The translations under genes were made by a program, and so were the position numbers. Shown piece by piece: positions 45,129 to 58,054 of a stretch of 64,000 bases of DNA. The notes under the pieces were generated by a model, which made no database searches, was not told where the DNA came from, and saw nothing but the letters and a program-made list of their open reading frames with translations. How positions within the stretch are numbered: the first letter of the stretch is position 1; each line of letters begins with the position of its first letter. The DNA is taken from contig CAJKRG010000006.1 in NCBI GenBank assembly GCA_905202215.1, positions 2,111 through 66,110 on the forward strand. The letters are read 5' to 3'. The stretch is from an uncultured Porphyromonadaceae bacterium. GTDB taxonomy: Bacteria; Bacteroidota; Bacteroidia; Bacteroidales; Muribaculaceae.

Positions 45129-46420
45129 TGTTTTTCTGTTGTATGAGTGAATGGTATTTTTGCCGCTATAATGAAAGCCGGCAGCGACATGGCCAGTGCC
45201 AGCAGGAAAAACGACTCATAGCCAAGTGTACGACATATATAGCCGCTGACCATACCCGGCAGCATGAAACCCAGATTCATGATGCCGCTTGCGAAAGCAT
45301 AGTGCGCCATAGGATGTCGACCTGCTGCGACCTGCTGCATCATAAACAAAGTCAACCCGACGAAACCGAAGCCATAGCAGAAATACTCGGTGACAAGTGC
45401 TGCCGCGACAATCATGAGACTTTCGGGTCGAAAATATGCCAACAGGTAATATATGACAAAAGGAATGTTGAAAATACTTACCAGGGGAATCAAAACTTTT
45501 TTCAGGCCGAAATGTGCGGTGAAATATCCTCCAAGCACAGACCCGGCTATGAAGGCTACCGTTCCCATCGTGCCGTAGGTAAGTCCGATGTCCTCATTTG
45601 ATAATCCGAGTCCGCCGGCAGCGGCCGGCGCTTTAAGAAATAAAGGCACCATTTTGACGGCAAAACCTTCGGTAAGGCGATAACATATTATGAAAAGTAT
45701 ATACAGCCAGATATGTTTTTTTGTAAAAAAGTCTTTGAATACATCGCATAGCGATGACATTGCATCTCGGAGAGTGGCCGGAGTCTCTTGATTCGTGGAA
45801 CCTGTCGGAAGAAAAAAACAATGGTATATCTGGACTGCGATTAGGATGCCGGCCATAAGCCCCATGATTATCATCCATGCATAGATTGCCGCCATGTCGG
45901 GGGCTGTCTTTCCGAAATGTCTCATGAGGCGCCCTGCAAGATAGATGAGACCGCCGTTGACGAGCACTTTTGCAAGATTGTAGAATGCTCCCTGCCAGCC
46001 GATATAGCGGGCCTGTGTTGTTTTGTCGAGAGAGGTGAGATAAATGCCGTCGGTGGCTATGTCGTTGGTGGCTCCGCAGAAAGCTATGACACCCATAAGT
46101 GTTATCGTATAGGCGAAAAAGTCGGGCAGCGGAAGTGAGAATGCGATAAAACCGAAGCAGATACCCGAGAGGAGCTGACATGTGAGTACAAACGTCTTTT
46201 TCGTGAAATACAGTTCCAAAAGAGGGCTCCACAGCGGTTTAAGGGTGTAAGGTAAAATGAGAAGGGATGTCCAGAAAGTAATGCTCGCTTCGTCGATTCC
46301 GAGGTCGGCAAGCATTATGACTGCGGCCAGTGAGATGGCCACAAAAGGAAGCCCCATGGCGAAGTATGCCGTGGGGATCCACGCGACGGGTGATATCCGT
46401 TTATGGACGGTCATCCTCAT
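45125..46420 (-). CDS. MFS/GPH-family sugar:cation symporter
   Basis: 12-TM permease sandwiched between the GH130 and GH92 genes with overlaps, consistent with manno-oligosaccharide uptake modules in Bacteroides. Confidence 0.65.
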
Positions 46421-48596
46421 TTACACCGAACGATACCGAAGGTTCGGGTCCCATTTCAAATTCGAGTATTCCTCCGGCGGCAATATCGCGATAATCGATA
46501 TATGATTTTTCGTAAGGCTTGCCGTTGAGGCGGGCGTGCTGAATGTAGATGTTTTTATCGGAATTGTGGTGTGCCATTATTTCGAAAGTACGGCCATTGC
46601 CGACATCGATAGATGCCGAATCGAACAGAGGAGTTCCGAACACGAATTTTCCGCCAGCCGGTTCAACCTGATAAATGCCCATAGATGAGAGAACGAACCA
46701 TGCGGACATCTGGCCGACATCTTCATTGCCGCATAGACCGGCCATGTCGTCGTTATAGAGTCTGTCCATGACGTGGCGCAGAAGCGGAGCCGCTTTTGCC
46801 GGTTGTCCCGCATAGTTGTAGAGGTATATGGTATGATGTCCCGGCTCGTTGCCGTGTGCATACTGGCCTATGAGGCCGCTTATGTCGGGCGACGCATTAC
46901 CTTCGAGAGCACTGTCGACCGTGAAGAGCGAGTCGAGTTTTGATACGAAAGCCTTGTCTGAGCCGAAAAGACCGATGAGTCCGTGGGGATCGTGCGGCAC
47001 AAGCCATACATATTGCCATCCGTTACCTTCGCAATAGTCGTCGGCACGGTGTGTTGTGGCGAAGGGATTGAATGATTCGTCGCGGAATTGTCCTGCCATG
47101 GATTTACCACGCATGAATTGCAGGGTGGAATCGAAATAGCATTTATAAGATTTGCCCCGGCTTCCGAAATATGCCGTATCGTCGTCGAGTCCGAGGGTGG
47201 CTGCGATCTTTGAGACAGCATTGTCTGCAATCGCGTATTCGAGCCCTTTGGCGACGCTTTCGCCGCAGTCGGGAGCATCGAAAGGCACATATCCGTAGCC
47301 CTTAAGGGCACTAAGAGAACGCTCGTCGAGCATGCAGGAAGTTTTCATGGCCTTGAATGCGCCCAAAGAATCTTCGACAAAGCCTTTCAGGAACAAGTCG
47401 GCGAGCACAATTACTCCGGGGTTGCCGATCATGCAGTCGGTTTCGTTGCCGTGGAGATGCCATACGGGGAGTTTGCCCTGCTGGCGATGGATGTTGAGGA
47501 ATGTGGCCGCATAGTCGGACTGTATGTCGGGGTGGATTATGGTCGATAGCGGGTGGGCGGCGCGGTATGTGTCCCAAAGAGAAAAAATAGTGTAATTGGT
47601 GAATTTTCCCTCGGTGTTATGGATATTGCCGTCGGCTCCGCGATAGTCTCCGTTTACATCGGAGAATGTGGCGGGAGCGAACATGGTGTGATATAGCGCC
47701 GTGTAGAATTTACGTAAGTCGCTCTCGTTATTGCCGCTGATTTTTATTTTTCCGAGACGAGCGTTCCACTCTTCGTCGGCTTTGGCGGCAATGGCGTCGA
47801 AAGTTCCTTTTTCCGCTTTGAGATTATGCAGTGAGTTGTCGGTGCTGACTGCCGAAATACCGGTCTGTGCGGTGAGGATATTGTTTGCAGGACTGAAAGA
47901 TAGAGTGGCAACGGTGCCTGCCGAGGTAGAATCGACCTCAAAAGAGGTTATCGGACTTGAAAATACTGTGGTGAAATATAAGTGCTGGTCTTTGGCCCAG
48001 CCGGTGGAGCGTCGGTAGCCCGAAACCGTGGTGTCGTTGACGAGGCTTATACCGGATTCCACATGATTGTCCCAGCCAATGCCGTATCCGAGATCGATTT
48101 TAATAAATGCGCTGTCGGTTCCGGCCGGATAGGTGTATCGGTGCGCGCCTGTACGGTTTGTTGCGGTGAGTTCAGCCTTGATATTCGAATCGTCGAGAGT
48201 TACCTTGTAATATCCGGGACGGCACAACTCTTTGTCATGGGAAAAATGAGACATACTGTCGGTTCTGGAAGTGACAGGCAGAAATAGAATGTCTCCGAGG
48301 TCTCCTATTCCGGTGCCGCTGAGATGTGTATGGCTAAAGCCAAGAAGAATCGAGTCGGAATAGTGGTATCCAGAGCACCAGTCCCAGCCCTTCACAATCT
48401 GTGACGGCCCGAGCTGTACCATACCGAACGGCACGTTTGCGCCAAGGAACACATGCCCGTGGTCGCCAGTGCCTATAAACGGATTTACATATTCGGTCAG
48501 ATTTTTTTCGGATACGTCGGTTTTTGCGCCACCGCACGATATTGACAGCAGAACAAGAATAATTCCGGCGATGGAAATGGCGTGCCTGTTTTTCAT
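46401..48596 (-). CDS. GH92-family alpha-mannosidase with lipoprotein signal
   Basis: GH92 N-terminal signature YVNPFIGTGDHGHVFLGANVPFGMVQLGPS. Length ~730 aa. The likely start is MKNRHAISIAG with a Cys lipobox. A -7 box TACATTTG lies on the minus strand at 48627-48634. Confidence 0.8.
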   Translation of the reverse strand: MKNRHAISIAGIILVLLSISCGGAKTDVSEKNLTEYVNPFIGTGDHGHVFLGANVPFGMVQLGPSQIVKGWDWCSGYHYSDSILLGFSHTHLSGTGIGDLGDILFLPVTSRTDSMSHFSHDKELCRPGYYKVTLDDSNIKAELTATNRTGAHRYTYPAGTDSAFIKIDLGYGIGWDNHVESGISLVNDTTVSGYRRSTGWAKDQHLYFTTVFSSPITSFEVDSTSAGTVATLSFSPANNILTAQTGISAVSTDNSLHNLKAEKGTFDAIAAKADEEWNARLGKIKISGNNESDLRKFYTALYHTMFAPATFSDVNGDYRGADGNIHNTEGKFTNYTIFSLWDTYRAAHPLSTIIHPDIQSDYAATFLNIHRQQGKLPVWHLHGNETDCMIGNPGVIVLADLFLKGFVEDSLGAFKAMKTSCMLDERSLSALKGYGYVPFDAPDCGESVAKGLEYAIADNAVSKIAATLGLDDDTAYFGSRGKSYKCYFDSTLQFMRGKSMAGQFRDESFNPFATTHRADDYCEGNGWQYVWLVPHDPHGLIGLFGSDKAFVSKLDSLFTVDSALEGNASPDISGLIGQYAHGNEPGHHTIYLYNYAGQPAKAAPLLRHVMDRLYNDDMAGLCGNEDVGQMSAWFVLSSMGIYQVEPAGGKFVFGTPLFDSASIDVGNGRTFEIMAHHNSDKNIYIQHARLNGKPYEKSYIDYRDIAAGGILEFEMGPEPSVSFGVNEDDRP

Positions 48597-48716
48597 GTTG
48601 TGAGTTGTGATTGGATGTTTGCAGTGCAAATGTAATTAAGATTTTGCTAATTTAATCGGCATTGCAGACATGGCGACACATATGGCAACATGAAGGACAG
48701 AAGAGTCTGTACTCGA

Positions 48717-49091
48717 TTAAATTCTGAATCTTTCAGGATATGAGCTGAGCAGTGTGTTGAGCACGATAACCGCATTATTCCGCTGGTGATCGTGTGACGA
48801 GTAGAGAAGGGTGGCTTTAGTGTGAGAGGCCAGTGTCTGTACGAGATCTGCGAAAGCGGCGCTTGTCCGAAGCTCTGTTCCGTAGCGTTTTTCGAATTCG
48901 GTCCAGCGGTTTTCGGGATCTGCATGAAACCATTCCCTCAGTTCGGTTGACGGCGCAATATCCTTATCCCATAAATCATAGTGGAAGGTCTCGTGGGATA
49001 ATCCGCGTGGCCATAATCTGTCGATATATACGCGGAAACCGTCGGAATTGTCGGCGGGATCATATGCGCGTTTCAATTGCAGTGTAGTCAT
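48717..49091 (-). CDS. DUF488 (YeaO-like) family protein
   Basis: 124 aa. VYIDRLWPRGL and the overall size match the DUF488 family. Confidence 0.6.
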   Translation of the reverse strand: MTTLQLKRAYDPADNSDGFRVYIDRLWPRGLSHETFHYDLWDKDIAPSTELREWFHADPENRWTEFEKRYGTELRTSAAFADLVQTLASHTKATLLYSSHDHQRNNAVIVLNTLLSSYPERFRI

Positions 49092-49176
49092 AATCAGTTA
49101 TTTTTGATTAAAGAACGTTTCGGTTAAAATGATTGTTCGTATGAATATTAGGGAATTTTTGTATCTTTGCACACCG

Positions 49177-49743
49177 ATGGAAGAAAAAAAAGAACATATC
49201 GACGATCTGACAGCAAGGCTTCGCGACCCTGCTACCGTGCGTGCTGCTTTCAGCGACATGGTTGCGGAATTCAGCCGCCCGCTTTACTGGCAGATACGAC
49301 GTATGGTTCTCAATGCCGATGACGCCGACGATCTGTTGCAGAATACTTTCATGAAGGCGTGGAACTCGCTCGAGAATTTCCGCGGGGAAGCCAAACTGTC
49401 GACATGGCTTCATAAGATCGCCATAAATGAGGCGATAAGTTTCCTTGAAAAAGAAAAACGTCGTGCCGGAGTCTCACTTGATGACCCTGACGGTGCAATG
49501 GCGGCCGGTATAGCGGCCTCACCGGATCTCGACGGAGATTCTCTTGGCGCGCATCTACGTCAAGCCGTGGCCGCTCTTCCTGAGAAACAGAGAATTGTTT
49601 TCAATATGAAGTATTTCGATGATATGAAATACGAGGATATATCCGAAATTCTCGGCACTACAGTGGGCGCGTTGAAGGCATCGTATCATCTTGCAGTTAA
49701 AAAAATCGAAAAGTATATGGAGCGTTTCGACCATGGCGATTAA
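49177..49743 (+). CDS. RNA polymerase ECF sigma factor (RpoE-like)
   Basis: Sigma-70 region 2 (LLQNTFMKAWNSLENFRGEAKLSTWLHKIAINEA) and a region 4 HTH (MKYEDISEILGTTVGALKASYHLAVKKI). Start chosen at MEEKKEHI. Confidence 0.75.
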   Translation: MEEKKEHIDDLTARLRDPATVRAAFSDMVAEFSRPLYWQIRRMVLNADDADDLLQNTFMKAWNSLENFRGEAKLSTWLHKIAINEAISFLEKEKRRAGVSLDDPDGAMAAGIAASPDLDGDSLGAHLRQAVAALPEKQRIVFNMKYFDDMKYEDISEILGTTVGALKASYHLAVKKIEKYMERFDHGD

Positions 49744-49791
49744 ACCTTGAAGTCGAAAGATAGTCTCATCTATATAAATAAATATCAGAAT

Positions 49792-50265
49792 ATGGACCGG
49801 AATAAATCTCATATACTCGAAATAGCCCGAAAGCAGGGTCTTGCCACTCCTTCGGCCGGTCTTGATGTGCCCGAAGGTTATTTCGATTCTTTTACAGCGC
49901 GCATGACGGCTGCGTTGCCGGAGCGGCCCGAACTGGAACACCCCGACGACATTGAAGCCGAGACCGCTCCGCGTACGTTCTGGCAGACGGTGCGTCCATA
50001 TGTATATATGGCTGCCATGTTTGCCGGAGTATGGCTCATGTTGCAGCTTTTCACCATGCTTACCGGTACGGGACGCCTTCAGCCGATGGATTCGAATCCT
50101 GTGCTTGCCGAAGCTCTTGACAACGACGCCTTTCTGGAACAGTTTGTCTATGATGATTTTGATTCGTGGGATATTGTCGACGAGATGGTCGAGGACGGTA
50201 GCCTTGATGCCGATTTCGAATTTGTCAGCGAAGATATCCCTGAAAATATTGTGCTCCCTCAATAA
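49792..50265 (+). CDS. membrane anti-sigma-factor-like protein
   Basis: It is immediately downstream of the ECF sigma gene. It has one TM helix (VYMAAMFAGVWLMLQLFTML) and an acidic C-terminal tail. Start chosen at MDRNKSHI. Confidence 0.5.
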   Translation: MDRNKSHILEIARKQGLATPSAGLDVPEGYFDSFTARMTAALPERPELEHPDDIEAETAPRTFWQTVRPYVYMAAMFAGVWLMLQLFTMLTGTGRLQPMDSNPVLAEALDNDAFLEQFVYDDFDSWDIVDEMVEDGSLDADFEFVSEDIPENIVLPQ

Positions 50266-50275
50266 CTAACAGAAT

Positions 50276-50767
50276 ATGCTCAATCGTTCTATTTCAATAA
50301 TGTGTGCGGTTTTTGCCGTTTTTATGTTTTCGTTCAGAATTGCAGCGCAGCAGCTTAACGAAGAAGACCGCAACCGCTATGTCACTCAGATAAGGGCCTA
50401 CAAGCATGATTATATTGTCAAAGAGCTCGATCTTACCAAAGAGCAGCAGAATGCTTTTTTCGAGCTTTATGACAATATGGAAGACAAGATAATGGATCTT
50501 GGCACCGAAGTCCGCAATCTTGAGAATAGCGCTCTTTCCGACAATGCTTCTTCCGAGGAGGTCTCGGCTGCCGTAGCCGCTTTATACAGCCAGAAACAGC
50601 AGGAAGGAGAGATTGAAATGGAATATTACGAGAAATATAAGAATATTCTGTCTCCTCGTCAGCTTGTGCTGCTGAAACAGGCTGAACGGAAGTTCAATCA
50701 GCAGCTTATGCGTCAACATCGCCGTATACGGGGTGAGAAAATGAACGCACGCGACAATAAACGCTGA
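50276..50767 (+). CDS. periplasmic LTXXQ-like (Spy/CpxP-like) helical protein
   Basis: Signal peptide, a predicted all-helical fold, LTKEQQNAF (an LTXXQ-like motif) and a second SPRQLVLLKQ motif. This gene order after a sigma/anti-sigma pair is typical of envelope-stress regulons. Confidence 0.5.
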   Translation: MLNRSISIMCAVFAVFMFSFRIAAQQLNEEDRNRYVTQIRAYKHDYIVKELDLTKEQQNAFFELYDNMEDKIMDLGTEVRNLENSALSDNASSEEVSAAVAALYSQKQQEGEIEMEYYEKYKNILSPRQLVLLKQAERKFNQQLMRQHRRIRGEKMNARDNKR

Positions 50768-50772
50768 CCGCC

Positions 50773-51552
50773 ATGGCTGTGCGAACCCCCTCCGAAACAA
50801 TAGATGCCGCAGAATCCGCCGGCATTGCTAAAAATAGCCGACCTTTAGGGCGCCTTCTCGCCGGTAGCGCGCTTGCTGGTGCCTATATCGCCTTGGGCGG
50901 TACATTGTCACTGATCATAGGATTTGGCTTTCCGGAACTTACGGCAGCCAATCCAGGACTTCAGCGTCTCCTGAGCGGACTGGTGTTTCCGATAGGTCTG
51001 ATGCTTGTAGTGATACTCGGCGCTGATCTTTTTACCGGAAACAACGCACTTCTTGTTCCTCCTTTCATGCGTGGACGCGTATCTGCAGCTGACATAATAC
51101 GAAACTGGACTATTGTCTGGTTCGGAAATTTCGCGGGTGCTCTTGCATTCGCGTATTTTCTTGTCTATATACCTGGTCTCTCATCGGCTCCATGCTATTC
51201 CGATGCACTTGCAGGTATGGTAGCCGCAAAGACCAATGCCTCTTTCTGGGTCATTTTTCTAAAAGGAATCGGAGCAAACTGGTGCGTTTGTCTTGCGGTG
51301 TGGCTGGCCTTGAGCGGGCGCCGTCTTGGCGAGAAGCTTATTGCCTGTGAAATCCCGGTGATGGCGTTTGTCGCCCTGGGATATGAGCATTGTGTGGCAA
51401 ATATGTTTTTTCTTCCTCTCGCCATGATGCAAGGGGCTGATCTTGACGTAATATCACTTTTTACGGCTAATCTGATACCGGCTACGTTAGGCAATATCGT
51501 AGGAGGCGCGCTTTTTGTCGGGGCGCTCCAATATTATCTACATCGCCGCTAA
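50773..51552 (+). CDS. formate/nitrite transporter (FNT) family channel
   Basis: Six TM segments, 259 aa, with FNT signature regions (LVVILGADLFTGN, the CEIPVMAFVALGYEHCVANMFFLP His-containing loop). It starts 6 nt after the upstream gene. Confidence 0.75.
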   Translation: MAVRTPSETIDAAESAGIAKNSRPLGRLLAGSALAGAYIALGGTLSLIIGFGFPELTAANPGLQRLLSGLVFPIGLMLVVILGADLFTGNNALLVPPFMRGRVSAADIIRNWTIVWFGNFAGALAFAYFLVYIPGLSSAPCYSDALAGMVAAKTNASFWVIFLKGIGANWCVCLAVWLALSGRRLGEKLIACEIPVMAFVALGYEHCVANMFFLPLAMMQGADLDVISLFTANLIPATLGNIVGGALFVGALQYYLHRR

Positions 51553-51631
51553 TGTGTTAACGGTTGTTAAATATCGATTTCCCCATGCAGTAATCGGCAT
51601 TTTGACACTCTTTTCTATGTAGGTTCATCAC

Positions 51632-53179
51632 ATGGATAATGCAAGCCTCATAGAGCAGTGTTCGGCCGGCAGCAAGGAAGCGATGGAGTCGCTTTATTGC
51701 TGCTACAGCAGGCGTATGATGCGTGTTATCCATCGTTATGTGACGGACAGTAAGTGTGCCGAAGATATTTTACATGATGGTTTTGTGCTTATTTTCACCC
51801 ATATCTCAGAGGTGAGACAGCCCGAACGTCTTGAATTCTGGATGGGTACCATCATGAAGAATCTGTGCCTCAACTATCTCAGCACGCTTGATGTCATGAC
51901 CATGCTTGATGATGATATCGAGTTGCCTGAGATACCTGATCTTGAGGACATCCTGAGTTACGAAGAGCTTGAACAACTGATCAATCGACTTCCCGACGGA
52001 TATCGTACGGTATTCAAACTTGCTGTTTTTGAAGGAAAATCGCATAAGGAGATCGGACGTATTCTCGGTATTTCGCCAAATTCCTCGTCATCTCAGCTAT
52101 TCCATGCCAAAGCGTTGCTTCGTAAGCTTATAACCGAACGGAGGCGTCAGGCCGAACTTATAGCTCTGGCCCTTCTTGTTGCAATCGGTGGTTTTACAGT
52201 TCTATATCGGAGTGATATCCCCGACAAGAATATGGAGATTGTGCAGACGGAAGTGCCGGAGATTGAAGAACGATTTAGTGAAATTCTGGCAGAAGCAGCT
52301 ATGCCGGAATGCAGAGAGACTGTGCAGATCCGAAAAAAATATGAAGTCAGCGAAAACAGGACGGCAGAGACTATGGAGATTGTTGCCGACCTCGACAGTG
52401 TGTCTGTAGAGGATACTCTCGTCGCTGAGGCTGATTCGGATTCTGTTGTGCCGCAAGTCGAGACTGGGCCTGTAAGGCAGACAATGTTTGATATTCCCCG
52501 AAAGGCTGTGGCAAATGCCCTGTGGACTATAGGCGCGCACTATACTGTTGGAGCCCAGACCCCGACAGTAGTTGGCGCGGATTATGTGGATAGAGCCCCG
52601 ATATTCAGCACAATGGATGGAACTGCAGGCAATTTTGTACCTTCGGATAAGATGCCGCTTCCGGAACCTTCGCTCTATCATGAGACAGACTATGATCTGC
52701 CGCTGACTTTCGGAGTCTCTGTGTCGAAAAAAATTACATCAAGACTGAGTTTGGAAACAGGACTCAACTATACCTATATGCATGCGACACTGAGATATAC
52801 CTCTCTGAATATGAGTCAGTCTGTGAAATCTAATTTCATCGGCATACCTCTGAAGGTTTCCTATACCTTTTACAGTAAAAAGGGACTGTCGTTTTATGGA
52901 ACCGGAGGCGCTTCCGTCGATTTCCCGATAGGGATGCATACTCGGACGACCGGAACGTCGGCCTATCCGGTGGCTGTGTCACTTCCTGAACTCAAATCGC
53001 GTACAGAGTTTTCGGCGCATGGTGGAATCGGGCTGCACTATTCCCTTACGCCAGTAATAGGTGTCTATATCGAACCGTCTGTAAGACACTATTTCAGGAA
53101 CGGCGCGAGCGCTCCGTCCTATTGGCAGGAACATCGCACGCTTATATCCGTGCCGATCGGAATAAAAATAAATTTGTAG
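51632..53179 (+). CDS. ECF sigma factor fused through a TM helix to a C-terminal OMP-like beta-barrel/beta-rich domain
   Basis: Residues ~1-175 carry sigma-70 region 2 and a region 4 HTH (YRTVFKLAVFEGKSHKEIGRILGISPNSSSSQLFHAKALLRK). One TM helix follows (AELIALALLVAIGGFTVLY), then an acidic linker. The last ~220 aa have alternating beta-strand patterning ending ...TLISVPIGIKINL, like OmpA-type barrels. It is a single uninterrupted 515-aa ORF. Confidence 0.55.
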   Translation: MDNASLIEQCSAGSKEAMESLYCCYSRRMMRVIHRYVTDSKCAEDILHDGFVLIFTHISEVRQPERLEFWMGTIMKNLCLNYLSTLDVMTMLDDDIELPEIPDLEDILSYEELEQLINRLPDGYRTVFKLAVFEGKSHKEIGRILGISPNSSSSQLFHAKALLRKLITERRRQAELIALALLVAIGGFTVLYRSDIPDKNMEIVQTEVPEIEERFSEILAEAAMPECRETVQIRKKYEVSENRTAETMEIVADLDSVSVEDTLVAEADSDSVVPQVETGPVRQTMFDIPRKAVANALWTIGAHYTVGAQTPTVVGADYVDRAPIFSTMDGTAGNFVPSDKMPLPEPSLYHETDYDLPLTFGVSVSKKITSRLSLETGLNYTYMHATLRYTSLNMSQSVKSNFIGIPLKVSYTFYSKKGLSFYGTGGASVDFPIGMHTRTTGTSAYPVAVSLPELKSRTEFSAHGGIGLHYSLTPVIGVYIEPSVRHYFRNGASAPSYWQEHRTLISVPIGIKINL

Positions 53180-53230
53180 ACTGCATGCAGTATTTGTCTT
53201 TTTTGCTATCTTTACTATAGAAATCAATAT

Positions 53231-53917
53231 TTGAACAATATGAAACTTACCCGTTATCTCATTATTGCAGCGGCAGCTCTCTCGCTGGGCGCTTGCAACA
53301 ACAGCGGCGATAATGCCGTGGCGTATTTCACCGACATTGTGACACTCGATTCGAGTACCGACCAGGGATCGGTGATGACATTCCGTGAACTGAACGACTC
53401 TCCTGTCATTACTCTGACGAGTACTACGGCTTTGCCGAAAGATAATGTCGGAAAACGTATTGTTATTCTGTACAGCCCCGTCGGAACAACCGAACATGGC
53501 GTGAGCGGCAATGTTAATCTTGTCAACGCCGGTCTTACCTATGGTGCCGGTGCGCCTCCGCTGGATGCCGTGGTCGACACTCTCGACAACTGGAAAAGCG
53601 ATGAAATAACTTTCATGCAGGCTTACCGTTCAGGAAAATATCTTAATCTCGGCATGATCCTTCCCACCAATGCCTCGCTTGAGAAATTCCGCTGTTATAT
53701 CGACGTGACTACTCTCGACAACGAATATCCGGAGCTTCATGTGGTGTATAAGGCTCAGGTCGGATATGATTCGCAATCTGCCAATTTCTTCGGGTCGTAT
53801 GATATAAGCAGTTTATGGAACCGTCCCGGTGTCAAAGGCCTCAAGGTGCTCTACACCGGATATAACAACGGTTCGGTGACCATAGAGAAAGAAACCGCCG
53901 TCAAACCGGCAGAATAA
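53231..53917 (+). CDS. hypothetical lipoprotein (possibly NigD-like)
   Basis: MKLTRYLIIAAAALSLGACNNSGDN is a lipobox. A ~230-aa beta-rich lipoprotein. The NigD-like call rests on size and organisation only. Confidence 0.45.
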   Translation: MNNMKLTRYLIIAAAALSLGACNNSGDNAVAYFTDIVTLDSSTDQGSVMTFRELNDSPVITLTSTTALPKDNVGKRIVILYSPVGTTEHGVSGNVNLVNAGLTYGAGAPPLDAVVDTLDNWKSDEITFMQAYRSGKYLNLGMILPTNASLEKFRCYIDVTTLDNEYPELHVVYKAQVGYDSQSANFFGSYDISSLWNRPGVKGLKVLYTGYNNGSVTIEKETAVKPAE

Positions 53918-54003
53918 ACACGATTCCATTATATACGTAGAAAATGCACCGGCGCTCCGCATATTGGAGGCCGGTGCATTTTTTTGTTTTTATCTTCTAT
54001 GGA

Positions 54004-55850
54004 TTATTTGCGGGCAATGCGCCAGATGGTTCCCTCGATAAGTGATACGTAGATGTCGCCGGACACAGGATCGATGTCGATGCCGTTGACCTCGCTTACG
54101 CCGAGAGGTAGCGACGCTACGAGTTCGGGGCCGTCGGCGCGGGTTATGGTCACAATTCCGCGGCGGCTGCCTGCGTAGATATACCCGTCTTTTTCGACTA
54201 CGATGCAGGGGGCATGTTCATATCCGAGACCGAGATCAAGAGTCCAGAGTTCCTTGAATCCGGGAGCTGTGGCATCGACTGCCACAAGTTCGCCGTCCAT
54301 GGTCTTGGCATAGATACGTGTGCCGTCCTCGCTGTGGCCCAGACTTTCGCGGTAACGGTGGCTGTTGTCGCGCCACAGCTGGCGCCCGGTCGCCCGGTCG
54401 AGAGCAGTCATATAGCGGTCGGGGGCCACGACAAACACTTTGTCGCCTGTGATTACTGGTACGACGTTGCCCGGACCGAGCATGTTGGCTGTCTTACCGT
54501 TGTTCCACACCCATTTGAGTTTGCCCGTATTGAGGTCGAGAGCGCGAAGATTTGTGTCCCATGCGCCGAACACGAGATCGGAACCGTCGATTGCGGGGGC
54601 TGCCTGACAGTAGTTGAAAATGGAATCATAACTCCATACGAGCTTCCCGTTGTCAGGGCGGCGACGTTCCATGCGTTTGTATGCGCCCTGGATATAGCCT
54701 TTTCCGTCGGGGGTGATAACTCCGTCGGCTACATACGGGCCTTCTTTCGAGGTCTGTTTTTTAACGCTACGGCCGTTGCGGGCATCAAGAATGAGGATGC
54801 CGTCGTGCGATGGGAATGCGACACGGCGGTTTTTCAGTGCCACAGGACGGCTGAAGAGGCTTGCGCCGGTCGGAGTGCTCCATGTGCGGCCGGTACTGCG
54901 GTCGATGGCGCGGGCCTGGCCCAGCGAATTGCCAAAATAGATGTTGTCGCGGTCGAAGCCAAGGCGGGTGAATATGGAGGCGCTGTCGGTCCATACCTTA
55001 TCCACGGCAAAGCCTTCGGGGACGGTGATGTCGCGTTTTTCCGGACGTTTGGCCTTCTTGTGGGTTGTTTTTGCCGGGAAAGCGTATTTGGCTTCTGGTG
55101 CTTCTCCGATATTTTTATTATAAATATGTACCCATGCAGGATCGACTTCGACTATAGTATATCCGTATTTGCCGTCGCGCATGTCTAAGGCACGAGTCAT
55201 CACACAAGGAAGATCGCTGCCGCTGTTGTCTCCGCCGGCTTTGTAGCGGCGCCAGGTATGGTAATGTCCGTTGATATGACCGATGACAGGATATTGTTCG
55301 AGCAGTTCAAGATAGTCGGCACAGTTGTCAAGATCGTCGAGGAGGGGATAGTGATTGAATGACAGCACGCGTTTGCCTGGTGTTGCGAGAGAGTCGAGTG
55401 TCGCTTTGAGCCAGTGCAGATCTTCCTGTTTCACATGGCCGTCGCCCATCTTCATGTATGGACCGCAATTGATACCGATGATGATGAGAGAGTCGAATTC
55501 GGCTACAAATCGGTCGTTACCCCAGAGGTCGACGAATGTTTTTGTTGCACTTTGGCTCCAGGTATCCTCGTGGTTTCCCGGGAGAACGAACAAGGGTGCT
55601 TTGATTCCGTCAAGAATGCTTTTTACATTGTTGAGTTCGATGTCTGATCCTTCGTTGCCGAGGTCGCCGTTCATCACCACGAAATCGTATTTTCCTTTGT
55701 TTATTTCATCGACAGCCAGGCGCAACTGCGATTCATTTGCGTTCCCGGGTGTGACATGGACATCGCTAAGTACAGCCATGCGTTGCCCTGACATGTAAGA
55801 AAAGGCAGAAACAGATATTGCGGCTGCCAGAAAGATTTTGCGTAAATTCA
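54004..55850 (-). CDS. calcineurin-like metallophosphoesterase fused to a PQQ-type beta-propeller repeat domain
   Basis: Signal peptide. N-terminal MPE motifs (GDLGNEGSD, GNHED, GHYH) and a C-terminal half with repeated PQQ/BamB-like blades (…LVWSYD…, …LKWVWNNG…, …QLWRDN…). The ORF-track start is a TTG. A better start is MNLRKIF at 55848-55850. The track coordinates are off by 1 nt here. Confidence 0.6.
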
Positions 55851-55977
55851 TGGGCTTACGTTGTTTTTTGTGTTTTTCGTTGTGCAAAAATAGCCAAAAA
55901 ACAACGACCGGCAAAACTTGTCGGGCAAGAATTACCGGTTTTTCAGAGGTGATGTTTTATGATATCCTTTGTATATT

Positions 55978-56784: not shown

Positions 56785-56966
56785 ATTTTTTCTGACAAAG
56801 ATAACGATAAAAGACGATATGCCATCTTTATCGGTCAGTAGAAATAATTTTGAAAAATTTTAAAAAATTCAGAACCTTTTTCTCTGTAACCGTGTTGTAA
56901 TATCAAAATCGGATAATTCAACTATCTGAGAGACAAAAGAGATAAGAACACTATTATTAATATGTC

Positions 56967-58022
56967 ATGAAAAGAATCGCATTCATCCTCGCTGTTGCTC
57001 TCGGGAGTGCAGCAGCTTTCGCTCAGGTAAACAAGGGCGAGCTCAAACAGCTTCAGAATTTCCTGGCTCAGCCGGCCGAACACGCCGCTACCAATGCCGA
57101 AGCTCTCAAGATTACAAACATTAAGGATCCTTCCACCTGGGAAGGCGTTACTGTCGTAGGCAAGAATGTTACCGCCATCGACTGGAAAGACAAACACCTT
57201 GCAGGCGTTCTCGATCTCAGCGGTTTCACCGCTCTCACAAAAGTGGATGTATCGAGAAATAAACTTCAGGGTATCACAGCAAAGGGTGATGCAGCCCTTG
57301 CCGAAGTGAATGCCTCCCGAAACCGTATCTCGGAAGCCGATTTTGACGGATGTACATCGCTTACCAAGCTGACGATCAATAATAATCGCATCGCCGAGTT
57401 CTCGCTCAACAATGTGCCTTCGCTCAAGAATCTCAATATAGCTTCGAATCTTCTGGCGGCTCTCGATCTTCAGGCCTCGCCGACTCTTGAGACTCTTAAC
57501 TGTCAGAGCAATCACCTCGAAAGTCTCGTAATTGCTGACTGCACTGCCCTCAAGAACCTCTATTGCGGCTATAACAAGCTTACCGGTGTGACACTTTCGG
57601 GTGTGACAAGTCTTCAGAATCTTAATGTTGACGACAATCAGATTGCCAACATGATTGTTTCCGGTCTTCCTTCTCTCTCTACTTTTATTTGCTCCGACAA
57701 TAATATGAAGCAGCTCGGACTTCGCGAGTGCAACGCTCTCCTCGATATTGTCTGCTCTTATAATGATCTTACTTCCTTCGAAGTGTCGAATTGCCCTAAC
57801 CTTATCTTCGTGGACTGCTCGTACAACGACCTTACCCAGCTCACACTCAGCAATCAGACCTTCCTGCAGCGCCTTCTCTGCAACAACAACGAACTTACAA
57901 TGCTCGATGTTTCTTTCGACCAGGCTCTTACCTACATCAATTGTCGCTACAACATGATTACCGACATGCGAACCATAGCCTGCCCGAACCTGAGAATGAT
58001 AGCCTGCCAGTGGAACTATTGA
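56967..58022 (+). CDS. secreted leucine-rich-repeat protein (BspA-like LRR)
   Basis: Signal peptide MKRIAFILAVALGSAAAFAQ followed by ~12 tandem ~22-aa LRRs (LxxLxxLxCxxNxLTxLDVS...). It ends in a strong terminator at 58055-58094. Confidence 0.65.
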   Translation: MKRIAFILAVALGSAAAFAQVNKGELKQLQNFLAQPAEHAATNAEALKITNIKDPSTWEGVTVVGKNVTAIDWKDKHLAGVLDLSGFTALTKVDVSRNKLQGITAKGDAALAEVNASRNRISEADFDGCTSLTKLTINNNRIAEFSLNNVPSLKNLNIASNLLAALDLQASPTLETLNCQSNHLESLVIADCTALKNLYCGYNKLTGVTLSGVTSLQNLNVDDNQIANMIVSGLPSLSTFICSDNNMKQLGLRECNALLDIVCSYNDLTSFEVSNCPNLIFVDCSYNDLTQLTLSNQTFLQRLLCNNNELTMLDVSFDQALTYINCRYNMITDMRTIACPNLRMIACQWNY

Positions 58023-58054
58023 TATCGGCAATGCGATAGACAAATACCCCCCGA

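Follow-up and report, generated by a model that had tools for sequence, protein, structure and literature searches.

Only the Dma-type proteins have been reported to reach, as single polypeptides, from the bacterial surface through both membranes into the cytoplasm. In gut Bacteroidota, the split versions govern the production of vesicles, the tolerance of toxins and fitness during colonisation. In Dma1 (BT_4721) of Bacteroides thetaiotaomicron (Bt), an N-terminal segment of ~40 aa that binds Das1, an ECF21 extracytoplasmic function (ECF) sigma factor, is followed by a transmembrane (TM) helix, a long disordered region and an OMP_b-brl_2 barrel (PMC10927553). The Dma1 barrel was found experimentally in the outer membrane (OM)/outer-membrane vesicle fraction, the dual-membrane span was shown by fractionation and tagging, and the protein undergoes proteolytic processing (PMC10927553). 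The sigma-fused, dual-membrane-spanning architecture was published in 2024 as part of the same family: Dma3 (BT_2778) represents a sigma-fused subtype that spans both membranes and is present in 10 of 29 Bacteroidota, mostly Bacteroides and Prevotella (Pardue et al., 2024; PMC10927553). This subtype is the simplest Dma version. Here, we describe a 515-aa protein of this architecture encoded at 51632–53179 on the plus strand of a 64,000-nt stretch of DNA (hereafter the window) from an uncultured Porphyromonadaceae bacterium (contig CAJKRG010000006.1), together with the candidate promoters and genes around it.

By architecture and synteny, and by its likeness to BT_2778 as that protein is described, the window protein is very probably of the Dma3 type. 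A first-pass annotation of the DNA had overlooked the Dma family publication (PMC10927553). The architecture is known, and the locus brings no new one; the window adds a member, a candidate promoter motif and an adjacent putative target, and the residual interest lies in Dma3 function and its activation mechanism.

Results

Domain structure of the fused protein

The fused gene and the domains of its product are located in the window as follows.

51632..53179, plus strand: fused sigma/dual-membrane-spanning protein gene, very probably of the Dma3 type; ATG start, 515 aa plus stop, one uninterrupted open reading frame (ORF)
51695..51883, plus strand: Sigma-70 region 2, aa 22–84; Pfam PF04542 Sigma70_r2, 32.2 bits
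51962..52120, plus strand: Sigma-70 region 4.2 helix-turn-helix, aa 111–163; Pfam PF08281 Sigma70_r4_2, 52.9 bits
52151..52207, plus strand: single predicted inner-membrane helix (signal-anchor, N-terminus inside), aa 174–192; Kyte-Doolittle 2.11
52208..52522, plus strand: acidic, intrinsically disordered, predicted periplasmic tether, aa 193–297; predicted local distance difference test (pLDDT) score ~32, 22–23% D/E
52523..53176, plus strand: C-terminal 8-stranded predicted OM beta-barrel, aa 298–515; long loop 311–349 after strand 1

The sigma domains comprise regions 2 and 4 only, as in ECF (group 4) sigma-70 factors, and the N-terminal part falls in the ECF superfamily by its score against NCBIfam TIGR02937 sigma70-ECF (68.8 bits vs. 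a cut-off of 42.9); none of the NCBIfam equivalog or subfamily cut-offs was reached by this part. The barrel region matches OMP_b-brl (PF13505, aa 352–488, 36.8 bits) and OMP_b-brl_2 (PF13568, aa 344–471, 35.1 bits), and all four Pfam matches of the protein exceed the gathering cut-offs. Between the two ends lies the one strongly hydrophobic segment of the protein (aa 174–192), directly preceded by RRRQ, and then a stretch in which Asp and Glu make up 22% of the residues (194–300).

In an AlphaFold2 model built on a 70-sequence family alignment, sigma2 is confident (pLDDT >93), sigma4 has a pLDDT of 70–79, and the last sigma4 helix passes unbroken into the membrane helix (helix 149–193). Residues 195–294 are disordered (pLDDT ~32) and are followed by eight DSSP strands over residues 298–514 (pLDDT ~90), with the loop 311–349 at low confidence. 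The connections between strands are 2–4 residues long on one side of the barrel, and 4, 15, 18 and ~40 residues long on the other. In the model, short turns would face the periplasm and longer loops the surface, as is usual, and both predicted barrel ends lie on the periplasmic side, where a tether coming from the periplasm would suit them. When searched against the PDB with Foldseek, the N-terminal part matched the ECF sigma factors in sigmaE/RseA, AlgU/MucA and SigW/RsiW, and the C-terminal part matched the 8-stranded integral OM barrels OmpW, OmpX, OmpA-TM, Ail, OprF-N and OprG, with target-normalised TM-scores of 0.6–0.67 against OmpW, OmpX, OmpA and a designed 8-strand barrel.

Pfam, AlphaFold2 and Foldseek thus agree with the first-pass annotation, which had read the gene as a single uninterrupted 515-aa ORF fusing an ECF sigma factor, a TM helix and a beta domain. 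Its ~100-aa acidic linker, ~220-aa beta domain and single TM helix were all correct. The domain matches and the model also bear out its picture of a cytoplasmic ECF sigma joined by one inner-membrane helix to an extracytoplasmic beta domain in one polypeptide, and what it had called an OMP-like barrel is predicted to be an 8-stranded barrel of the outer-membrane type.

Conservation across fused homologues

The window protein falls in a 90%-identity cluster of 36 members, almost all of which are 515 aa long. One member, P0121 (98% identical to the window protein), turns up in 365 indexed blocks of the assembly collection, where its neighbours are as in the window. Since the contig index lacks the exact window protein, P0121 served as a synteny relative together with the more distant P0004 (61% identical). 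The same architecture is found in more than 120 full-length homologues of 470–590 aa, and relatives, whether fused, split or sigma-only, are present in at least 554 species-level genomes (one genome per species scanned). The locus analyses below cover the best 80 loci of these genomes, 79 of which carry Bacteroidota names, the other (L074) being titled only 'bacterium'. One homologue, P0045, is labelled 'MAG: Staphylococcus sp.' and lies on a 2.6-Mb contig, while every other match is to Bacteroidota; this label probably reflects a mislabelled or chimeric bin.

Conservation among 70 homologues is concentrated in the sigma domains, where regions 2.2 and 4.2 hold 28 of the 30 invariant columns of the family. 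The invariant residues are D45, L47, H48, D49, G50 and W70 in region 2, and L120, P121, G123, Y124, H138, E140, I141, L145, G146, I147, S154, Q155, L156 and A159 in region 4.2. From the nearly invariant sigma4 position I167, only 5–6 residues lead to the TM helix in 70 of 70 homologues, which leaves no room for an anti-sigma segment. The TM helix has a median of 3 Lys and Arg among the 9 residues on its cytoplasmic side vs. 1 among the 12 residues after it, and contains Gly or Pro in 68 of the homologues. The linker is 67–159 aa long (median 120). The periplasm is ~20–25 nm wide, and even the shortest linker (67 aa), if extended, is still enough to cross it. Finally, the last residue is W, F or L in 67 homologues. 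As modelled, the protein fits an envelope-spanning geometry by its linker of at least 67 aa, the alternation of turns and loops, the beta-signal-like C-terminus and the basic cytoplasmic TM flank.

Fused and split forms

A single fused ORF of 490–607 aa is present in 46 of the 80 best loci, in Muribaculaceae, Prevotella, Alloprevotella and some Bacteroides. With this frequency, and with relatives in at least 554 species-level genomes, the fusion is not the rarity that the first-pass annotation took it for. The split form occupies 28 loci, in Bacteroides, Phocaeicola, Parabacteroides, Tannerellaceae and others, and consists of a ~180-aa sigma ORF followed at −26 to +35 nt by an ORF of 346–576 aa. 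This second ORF encodes, in order, a cytoplasmic segment of 48–83 aa (e.g. KWIxxLRxRMEDYSEPxPxGLWxxLExEL), a TM helix, a linker and a barrel.

The window sigma domain shares 38–46% identity (E ~1e-40) with the sigma ORFs of split pairs in Bacteroides, Phocaeicola and Prevotella, and the window barrel shares 24–34% identity (E 1e-19 to 1e-24) with split Dma barrels. Judged by these alignments, both modules of the window protein are homologous to the split Das sigma and Dma pairs, and the level of identity to sigma factors beside Dma-type genes suggests that the window sigma belongs to ECF21 or a sister group. Neighbour-joining of the sigma domains places the fused forms in one clade (75 of 100 bootstraps) but not the split forms (33 of 100), which suggests a single fusion event, with moderate tree support. 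The first-pass annotation had proposed a search for fused orthologues as against split sigma plus anti-sigma pairs. Such pairs do exist among the relatives, but they stand apart from the fused clade and carry an extra anti-sigma segment of ~50 aa, which is cytoplasmic in the split Dma ORFs and absent from the fused form. Because this segment is absent and the sigma domain is covalently joined 5–6 residues before the TM helix, the window protein cannot be a usual anti-sigma factor; from its sequence, it does not qualify as one of the Dma1/2 type.

A candidate promoter motif before and after the fused gene

Two putative ECF-type promoters flank the fused gene.

51582..51617, plus strand: putative promoter P1; −35-like TGCAGT at 51586–51591, −10-like CTCTTTTCTAT at ~51608–51618; 50 nt before the ATG of the fused gene
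53182..53217, plus strand: putative promoter P2; −35-like TGCAGT at 53186–53191, −10-like ATCTTTACTAT at ~53208–53218; 3 nt after the stop codon of the fused gene and 58 nt before the ATG of the next gene

In an alignment, the element ATGCAGTA[AT]T ... CTTT[TA]CTAT, with identical spacing, was common to both window intergenic regions and to those of the 61%-identity relative, standing before the fused gene and again right after its stop codon. At P1, both blocks are kept in this relative and the spacer is variable. The hexamer TGCAGT occurs within −200 to +130 of the fused ORF start in 41 of the 46 fused loci (background expectation, ~0.1 per region), as part of a conserved bipartite ECF-type motif upstream of fused genes, RTGCAGT[C/A]TTT...aTCTat.

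We built a weight matrix of 36 columns from 40 non-redundant sites in other genomes, with the window excluded (consensus ncCATGCAGTCTTTT-N12-atCTattta). When both strands of the window were scanned, this matrix gave two matches only, at 53182 (19.2 bits) and 51582 (14.2 bits), both in the expected intergenic gaps and on the expected strand; the third-best score was 8.3. Among 200 dinucleotide-preserving shuffles, a score of at least 19.2 arose once, and two matches of at least 14.2 arose three times. The site homologous to P2 in L082/L083 scores 24.0. A second motif site on the same strand, 0–125 nt after the stop codon, is present in 28 of the 46 fused loci. Over 0.75 Mb of loci, there were 36 matches of at least 15 bits away from the system's own start, and all but one precede an ORF beside the system; the lone exception is a minus-strand match in L063 with no following ORF.

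Ten split loci (L047, L051, L055, L058, L064, L065, L068, L070, L071 and L078) carry a related motif, ATGCAGTATTTTTG...CATTTAT, ~55 nt before the sigma gene. Its −35-like part is nearly the same as in the fused loci, whereas its −10-like part differs (CATTTAT vs. aTCTat, GGACTaAT). One of these loci, L064, has a further motif copy before a true NigD gene (NigD_N and NigD_C). The regulons of Das1 (Bt) and EcfO (Phocaeicola vulgatus) have NigD-family lipoproteins as their main members (PMC10927553; PMC13114119), and the L064 site, which reproduces this published link, supports the motif as a promoter of this sigma group. The common −35-like element could also underlie the behaviour of the Bt dma3 locus, which is up-regulated in both dma1 and dma2 mutants, that is, when Das1 or Das2 is freed (PMC13088901). 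No published promoter motif for this sigma group was found in the searchable literature. A scan of 48900–54100 for sigma-70 consensus promoters and terminators, which models neither Bacteroidota nor ECF promoters, gave nothing above shuffles.

A 10-nt palindrome, CTGCATGCAG, at 53183–53192 overlaps the −35-like element of P2; it begins 4 nt past the stop codon, with a T-rich run behind it. It was not called as a terminator by the terminator scan.

Genes behind the second motif site

P2 precedes a gene for a NigD-like lipoprotein.

53240..53917, plus strand: NigD-like lipoprotein gene, putative direct target; 225 aa from ATG 53240; lipobox LSLGAC

The encoded protein matches NF051862, 'NigD1/NigD2 family lipoprotein', over aa 5–207 (model positions 4–204 of 211) with an E-value of 1.1e-11 and 45 bits, below the cut-off of 60, and Pfam NigD_C with 21.0 bits, below the cut-off of 22.6; it has no NigD_N match. 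The gene is kept downstream of the fused gene in relatives of 61–98% identity. A fixed operon of sigma-Dma and NigD genes was considered and dropped, since tblastn at 1e-5 found this NigD-like neighbour in none of the 80 loci, and we prefer a conserved promoter followed by a cargo gene that varies. What follows the second motif site indeed differs between genomes, and includes small lipoproteins (one with DUF4377, some with no family assignment), serpin and CotH lipoproteins, class I S-adenosylmethionine (SAM) methyltransferases and radical-SAM/SPASM enzymes. In the Prevotella loci L025, L029, L037 and L038, a further motif copy stands before a radical-SAM gene 0.5–1.9 kb downstream.

The methyltransferases bear on the relation to Bt Dma3. 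BT_2779, which adjoins BT_2778 and is co-induced with it, encodes a class I SAM-dependent methyltransferase (PMC13088901 supplement). A homologous methyltransferase adjoins the fused gene in 11 of the 46 fused loci and in none of the split loci. In 8 of these 11 it begins 66–78 nt after the stop codon of the fused gene, and a motif site precedes 6 of the 8 immediately downstream copies as well as the 2 upstream ones. This synteny ties Bt Dma3 to the fused clade of the window protein.

Neighbouring genes

Directly upstream of the fused gene, on the same strand (49129–51552, plus) and with gaps of at most 10 nt, is another ECF system, of the conventional kind. The whole row is conserved in relatives of 61–98% identity, and its position places two envelope-signalling sigma systems in tandem.

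49129–49743, plus strand: ECF sigma
49747–50265, plus strand: 172-aa single-TM protein with no Pfam match, probably the anti-sigma of the upstream ECF sigma
50276–50767, plus strand: 163-aa protein with a weak LTXXQ/Spy-like match
50773–51552, plus strand: formate/nitrite transporter

Further genes lie on the minus strand on either side.

46401–48629, minus strand: GH92 alpha-mannosidase-family gene, conserved in relatives
48717–49091, minus strand: DUF488 gene, conserved in relatives
54004–55914, minus strand: 636-aa ORF (615 aa as called in L081), a calcineurin-like metallophosphatase with pyrroloquinoline quinone (PQQ)-type beta-propeller repeats, convergent with the NigD-like gene

The GH92 and DUF488 neighbours fit a gut Bacteroidales genome. 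Beyond the metallophosphatase, a 373-aa ORF at 56922–58043 (minus) is fully antisense to a 351-aa protein at 56967–58022 (plus) that looks leucine-rich-repeat-like by eye. A shadow of these repeats, rather than a gene, probably accounts for the minus-strand ORF; L081 calls the plus-strand gene only.

Discussion

A proposed mechanism

By analogy with Dma1/Reo and with RseA-type proteolysis, we infer the following mechanism, to which, taken as a whole, we assign a probability of about 0.6. The ECF sigma domain would lie in the cytoplasm, held by the signal-anchor helix in the inner membrane, and the ~105-aa disordered acidic tether would cross the periplasm to an 8-stranded barrel inserted in the outer membrane. 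The last sigma4 helix continues directly as the membrane helix, and tethering itself would therefore stop the sigma domain from engaging RNA polymerase. On sensing a surface cue or damage to the outer membrane, the barrel would trigger a cut of the tether and then of the TM helix by regulated intramembrane proteolysis. Once free, the sigma domain would recognise RTGCAGT[C/A]TTT-N-aTCTat promoters and transcribe its own gene from P1 and the NigD-like gene from the stronger P2, so that the two genes would form a self-contained envelope-stress cassette.

More tentatively, the fused form as a class may be a complete surface-to-promoter pathway in one chain, with no anti-sigma, in which proximity of sigma4 to the membrane is inhibitory and proteolysis frees the sigma. 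Such a unit would be a portable two-gene cassette with an interchangeable cargo gene after the stop-codon promoter, and the shared −35 element would explain the cross-induction of dma3. If this holds, the cargo would be the NigD-like lipoprotein in the window and, elsewhere, a serpin, CotH, a DUF4377 lipoprotein, a SAM methyltransferase or a radical-SAM enzyme.

Several points weigh against the proposed mechanism. Deletion of dma3 in Bt gave no detected phenotype (PMC10927553, PMC13088901), so the first-pass annotation was right to call such fusions poorly characterised. A second homologue search, seeded with the Bacteroidaceae homologue P0107 and accompanied by two cluster look-ups in order to find BT_2778, returned no member labelled B. 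thetaiotaomicron or WP_011108473.1 (BT_2778). Among the 70 homologues, neither the surroundings of the TM helix nor the linker yielded a conserved motif for cleavage by a site-1 or site-2 protease, and the cleavage-motif check proposed in the first-pass annotation therefore came out negative; over residues 168–296, the only column that reaches 80% conservation is residue 175 (80%). Insertion in the outer membrane of a barrel still joined to an inner-membrane anchor follows no established pathway. On the promoter side, P1 is weak (14.2 bits, below the training minimum of 18.8), the upstream site of the 61%-identity relative's own gene (L082) falls below the 12-bit reporting threshold even with both blocks conserved, and the seed hexamer of the weight matrix was taken from the window itself. 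Finally, the shared −35-like element and the induction of Bt dma3 upon release of Das1 or Das2 mean that another sigma factor might read these promoters.

Alternative explanations

Proteolytic release and activity while membrane-bound, the two modes named in the first-pass annotation, remain the right pair of alternatives. In the second mode, the sigma would work while tethered, pulling RNA polymerase and promoters to the inner membrane in the manner of ToxR, TcpP and CadC, with the barrel and tether modulating it by conformation, tension or oligomerisation. The fused form lacks both an anti-sigma segment and a conserved cleavage motif, its two candidate promoters stand directly beside the gene, as would suit co-transcriptional membrane insertion that keeps the locus near the membrane, and a fixed working geometry could explain why the spacing from sigma4 to the TM helix is invariably 5–6 residues. 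However, that same spacing puts the DNA-binding helix of sigma4 only 5–6 residues from the bilayer, whereas the juxtamembrane linkers of ToxR-type regulators are longer; sigma4 also has to reach its docking site on the beta-flap of a ~400-kDa polymerase. Moreover, Gly or Pro in 68 of 70 TM helices is compatible with intramembrane cleavage, and the homologous split systems act by freeing the sigma, with Dma1 being proteolytically processed (PMC10927553). We consider tethered activity unlikely. Unlikely, too, is the other main rival, in which the fused protein is chiefly a target or damper of split Das/Dma systems, with promoters read by a separate Das-type sigma and a tethered sigma that is inactive or a decoy titrating core polymerase or a shared partner. 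The closely related −35 element ATGCAGTATTTTTG of split Das loci speaks for it, as do the up-regulation of the Bt dma3 locus when either dma1 or dma2 is mutated and the phenotype-free dma3 deletion (PMC13088901). But the 28 of 30 invariant columns in regions 2.2 and 4.2 argue for selection on sigma function and not for decay into a decoy, the different −10-like elements of fused (aTCTat, GGACTaAT) and split (CATTTAT) loci suggest separate specificities, and the motif co-occurs with the fused gene across families that otherwise differ in everything.

Two further explanations are both unlikely, to different degrees. The C-terminal domain might be a periplasmic beta-sandwich or soluble sensor, in which case the protein would span the inner membrane only, as a conventional one-component transmembrane sigma. 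The want of an established insertion pathway for a barrel attached to an inner-membrane anchor speaks for this reading, yet two OMP barrel Pfam models score above threshold, eight long amphipathic strands are predicted with pLDDT ~90, and the structural matches are solely to integral OM barrels. The beta-signal-like C-terminus, the linker of at least 67 aa in 70 of 70 homologues and the presence of the homologous Dma1 barrel in OM vesicles (PMC10927553) point the same way, making an inner-membrane-only topology very improbable. An artefact of sequencing or assembly, in which a sigma gene and an adjacent gene for a Dma-type anti-sigma were joined through a frameshift or the loss of a stop codon, is suggested by related genomes in which split sigma and Dma pairs have overlapping stop and start codons. 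We rejected this origin, which has next to no chance of being correct: near-identical copies of the 515-aa ORF occur on hundreds of independent contigs, homologues extend across Bacteroidales with 46 fused ORFs from separate species-level genomes, and the fused clade is distinct and without the ~50-aa anti-sigma segment that simple read-through would keep. The fusion that the first-pass annotation wished to see distinguished from a sequencing error is thus real.

The window locus offers a compact model of the Dma3 class, with one protein, one strong adjacent candidate promoter and one NigD-like putative target. The candidate motif and the single adjacent gene are experimental handles on tethered-sigma switching and on the Dma3 regulon.

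Comparison with known systems

ToxR, TcpP and CadC are membrane-bound one-component transcription activators. They resemble the window protein in that one polypeptide carries a DNA-binding domain, a single TM helix and a sensor outside the cytoplasm. They are, however, winged-helix activators that work tethered and end in the periplasm, whereas the window protein is a sigma factor predicted to reach the outer membrane. A C-terminal extension of the ECF core with no separate anti-sigma, as in the window protein, is described for ECF41, ECF42, ECF238, ECF263 and others in the ECF reclassification (Casas-Pastor et al., 2021; PMC7826278). As given in its main text, those extensions are cytoplasmic (SnoaL-like, TPR, Cys-rich) or multi-pass TM (ECF263), in contrast to the OM-type barrel of the window protein, and an outer-membrane barrel extension does not figure in that main text (PMC7826278).

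In FecA-FecR-FecI signalling and in the regulated intramembrane proteolysis of RseA/sigmaE, both discussed in PMC10927553, an ECF sigma is informed of a signal that arises at the outer membrane or beyond it, and sequential proteolytic release is the likely logic. FecA-FecR-FecI consists of three separate proteins and RseA/sigmaE of two, whereas the window protein would combine the roles of OM receptor, inner-membrane anti-sigma and sigma in one chain, with a predicted barrel of 8 strands in place of the 22-strand TonB-dependent transducer of FecA-type signalling. Closer still are the split pairs of an ECF21 sigma and a dual-membrane-spanning anti-sigma, namely Dma1/Das1 (BT_4721/BT_4720), Dma2/Das2, and EcfO/Reo of B. 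fragilis and P. vulgatus. With these pairs the window protein shares a homologous sigma and barrel, the same layout of TM helix, tether and barrel, a related −35-like element and the NigD link. Unlike it, they are encoded by two genes, and the anti-sigma protein begins with a cytoplasmic sigma-binding segment of ~50 aa.

BT_2778 (Dma3) matches the window protein in its order of parts, with the ECF sigma at the N-terminus, then a TM helix and a long disordered stretch, and an 8-stranded OMP_b-brl_2 barrel at the C-terminus. Both belong to a type restricted to Bacteroidota. Directly beside BT_2778 lies a co-regulated gene (BT_2779), as the NigD-like gene may be for the window protein. The window locus differs in that its neighbour is a NigD-like lipoprotein gene and not a methyltransferase gene, and in coming from another, probably Muribaculaceae-like lineage; the best named relative of the window protein is from an uncultured Muribaculum (41% identity).

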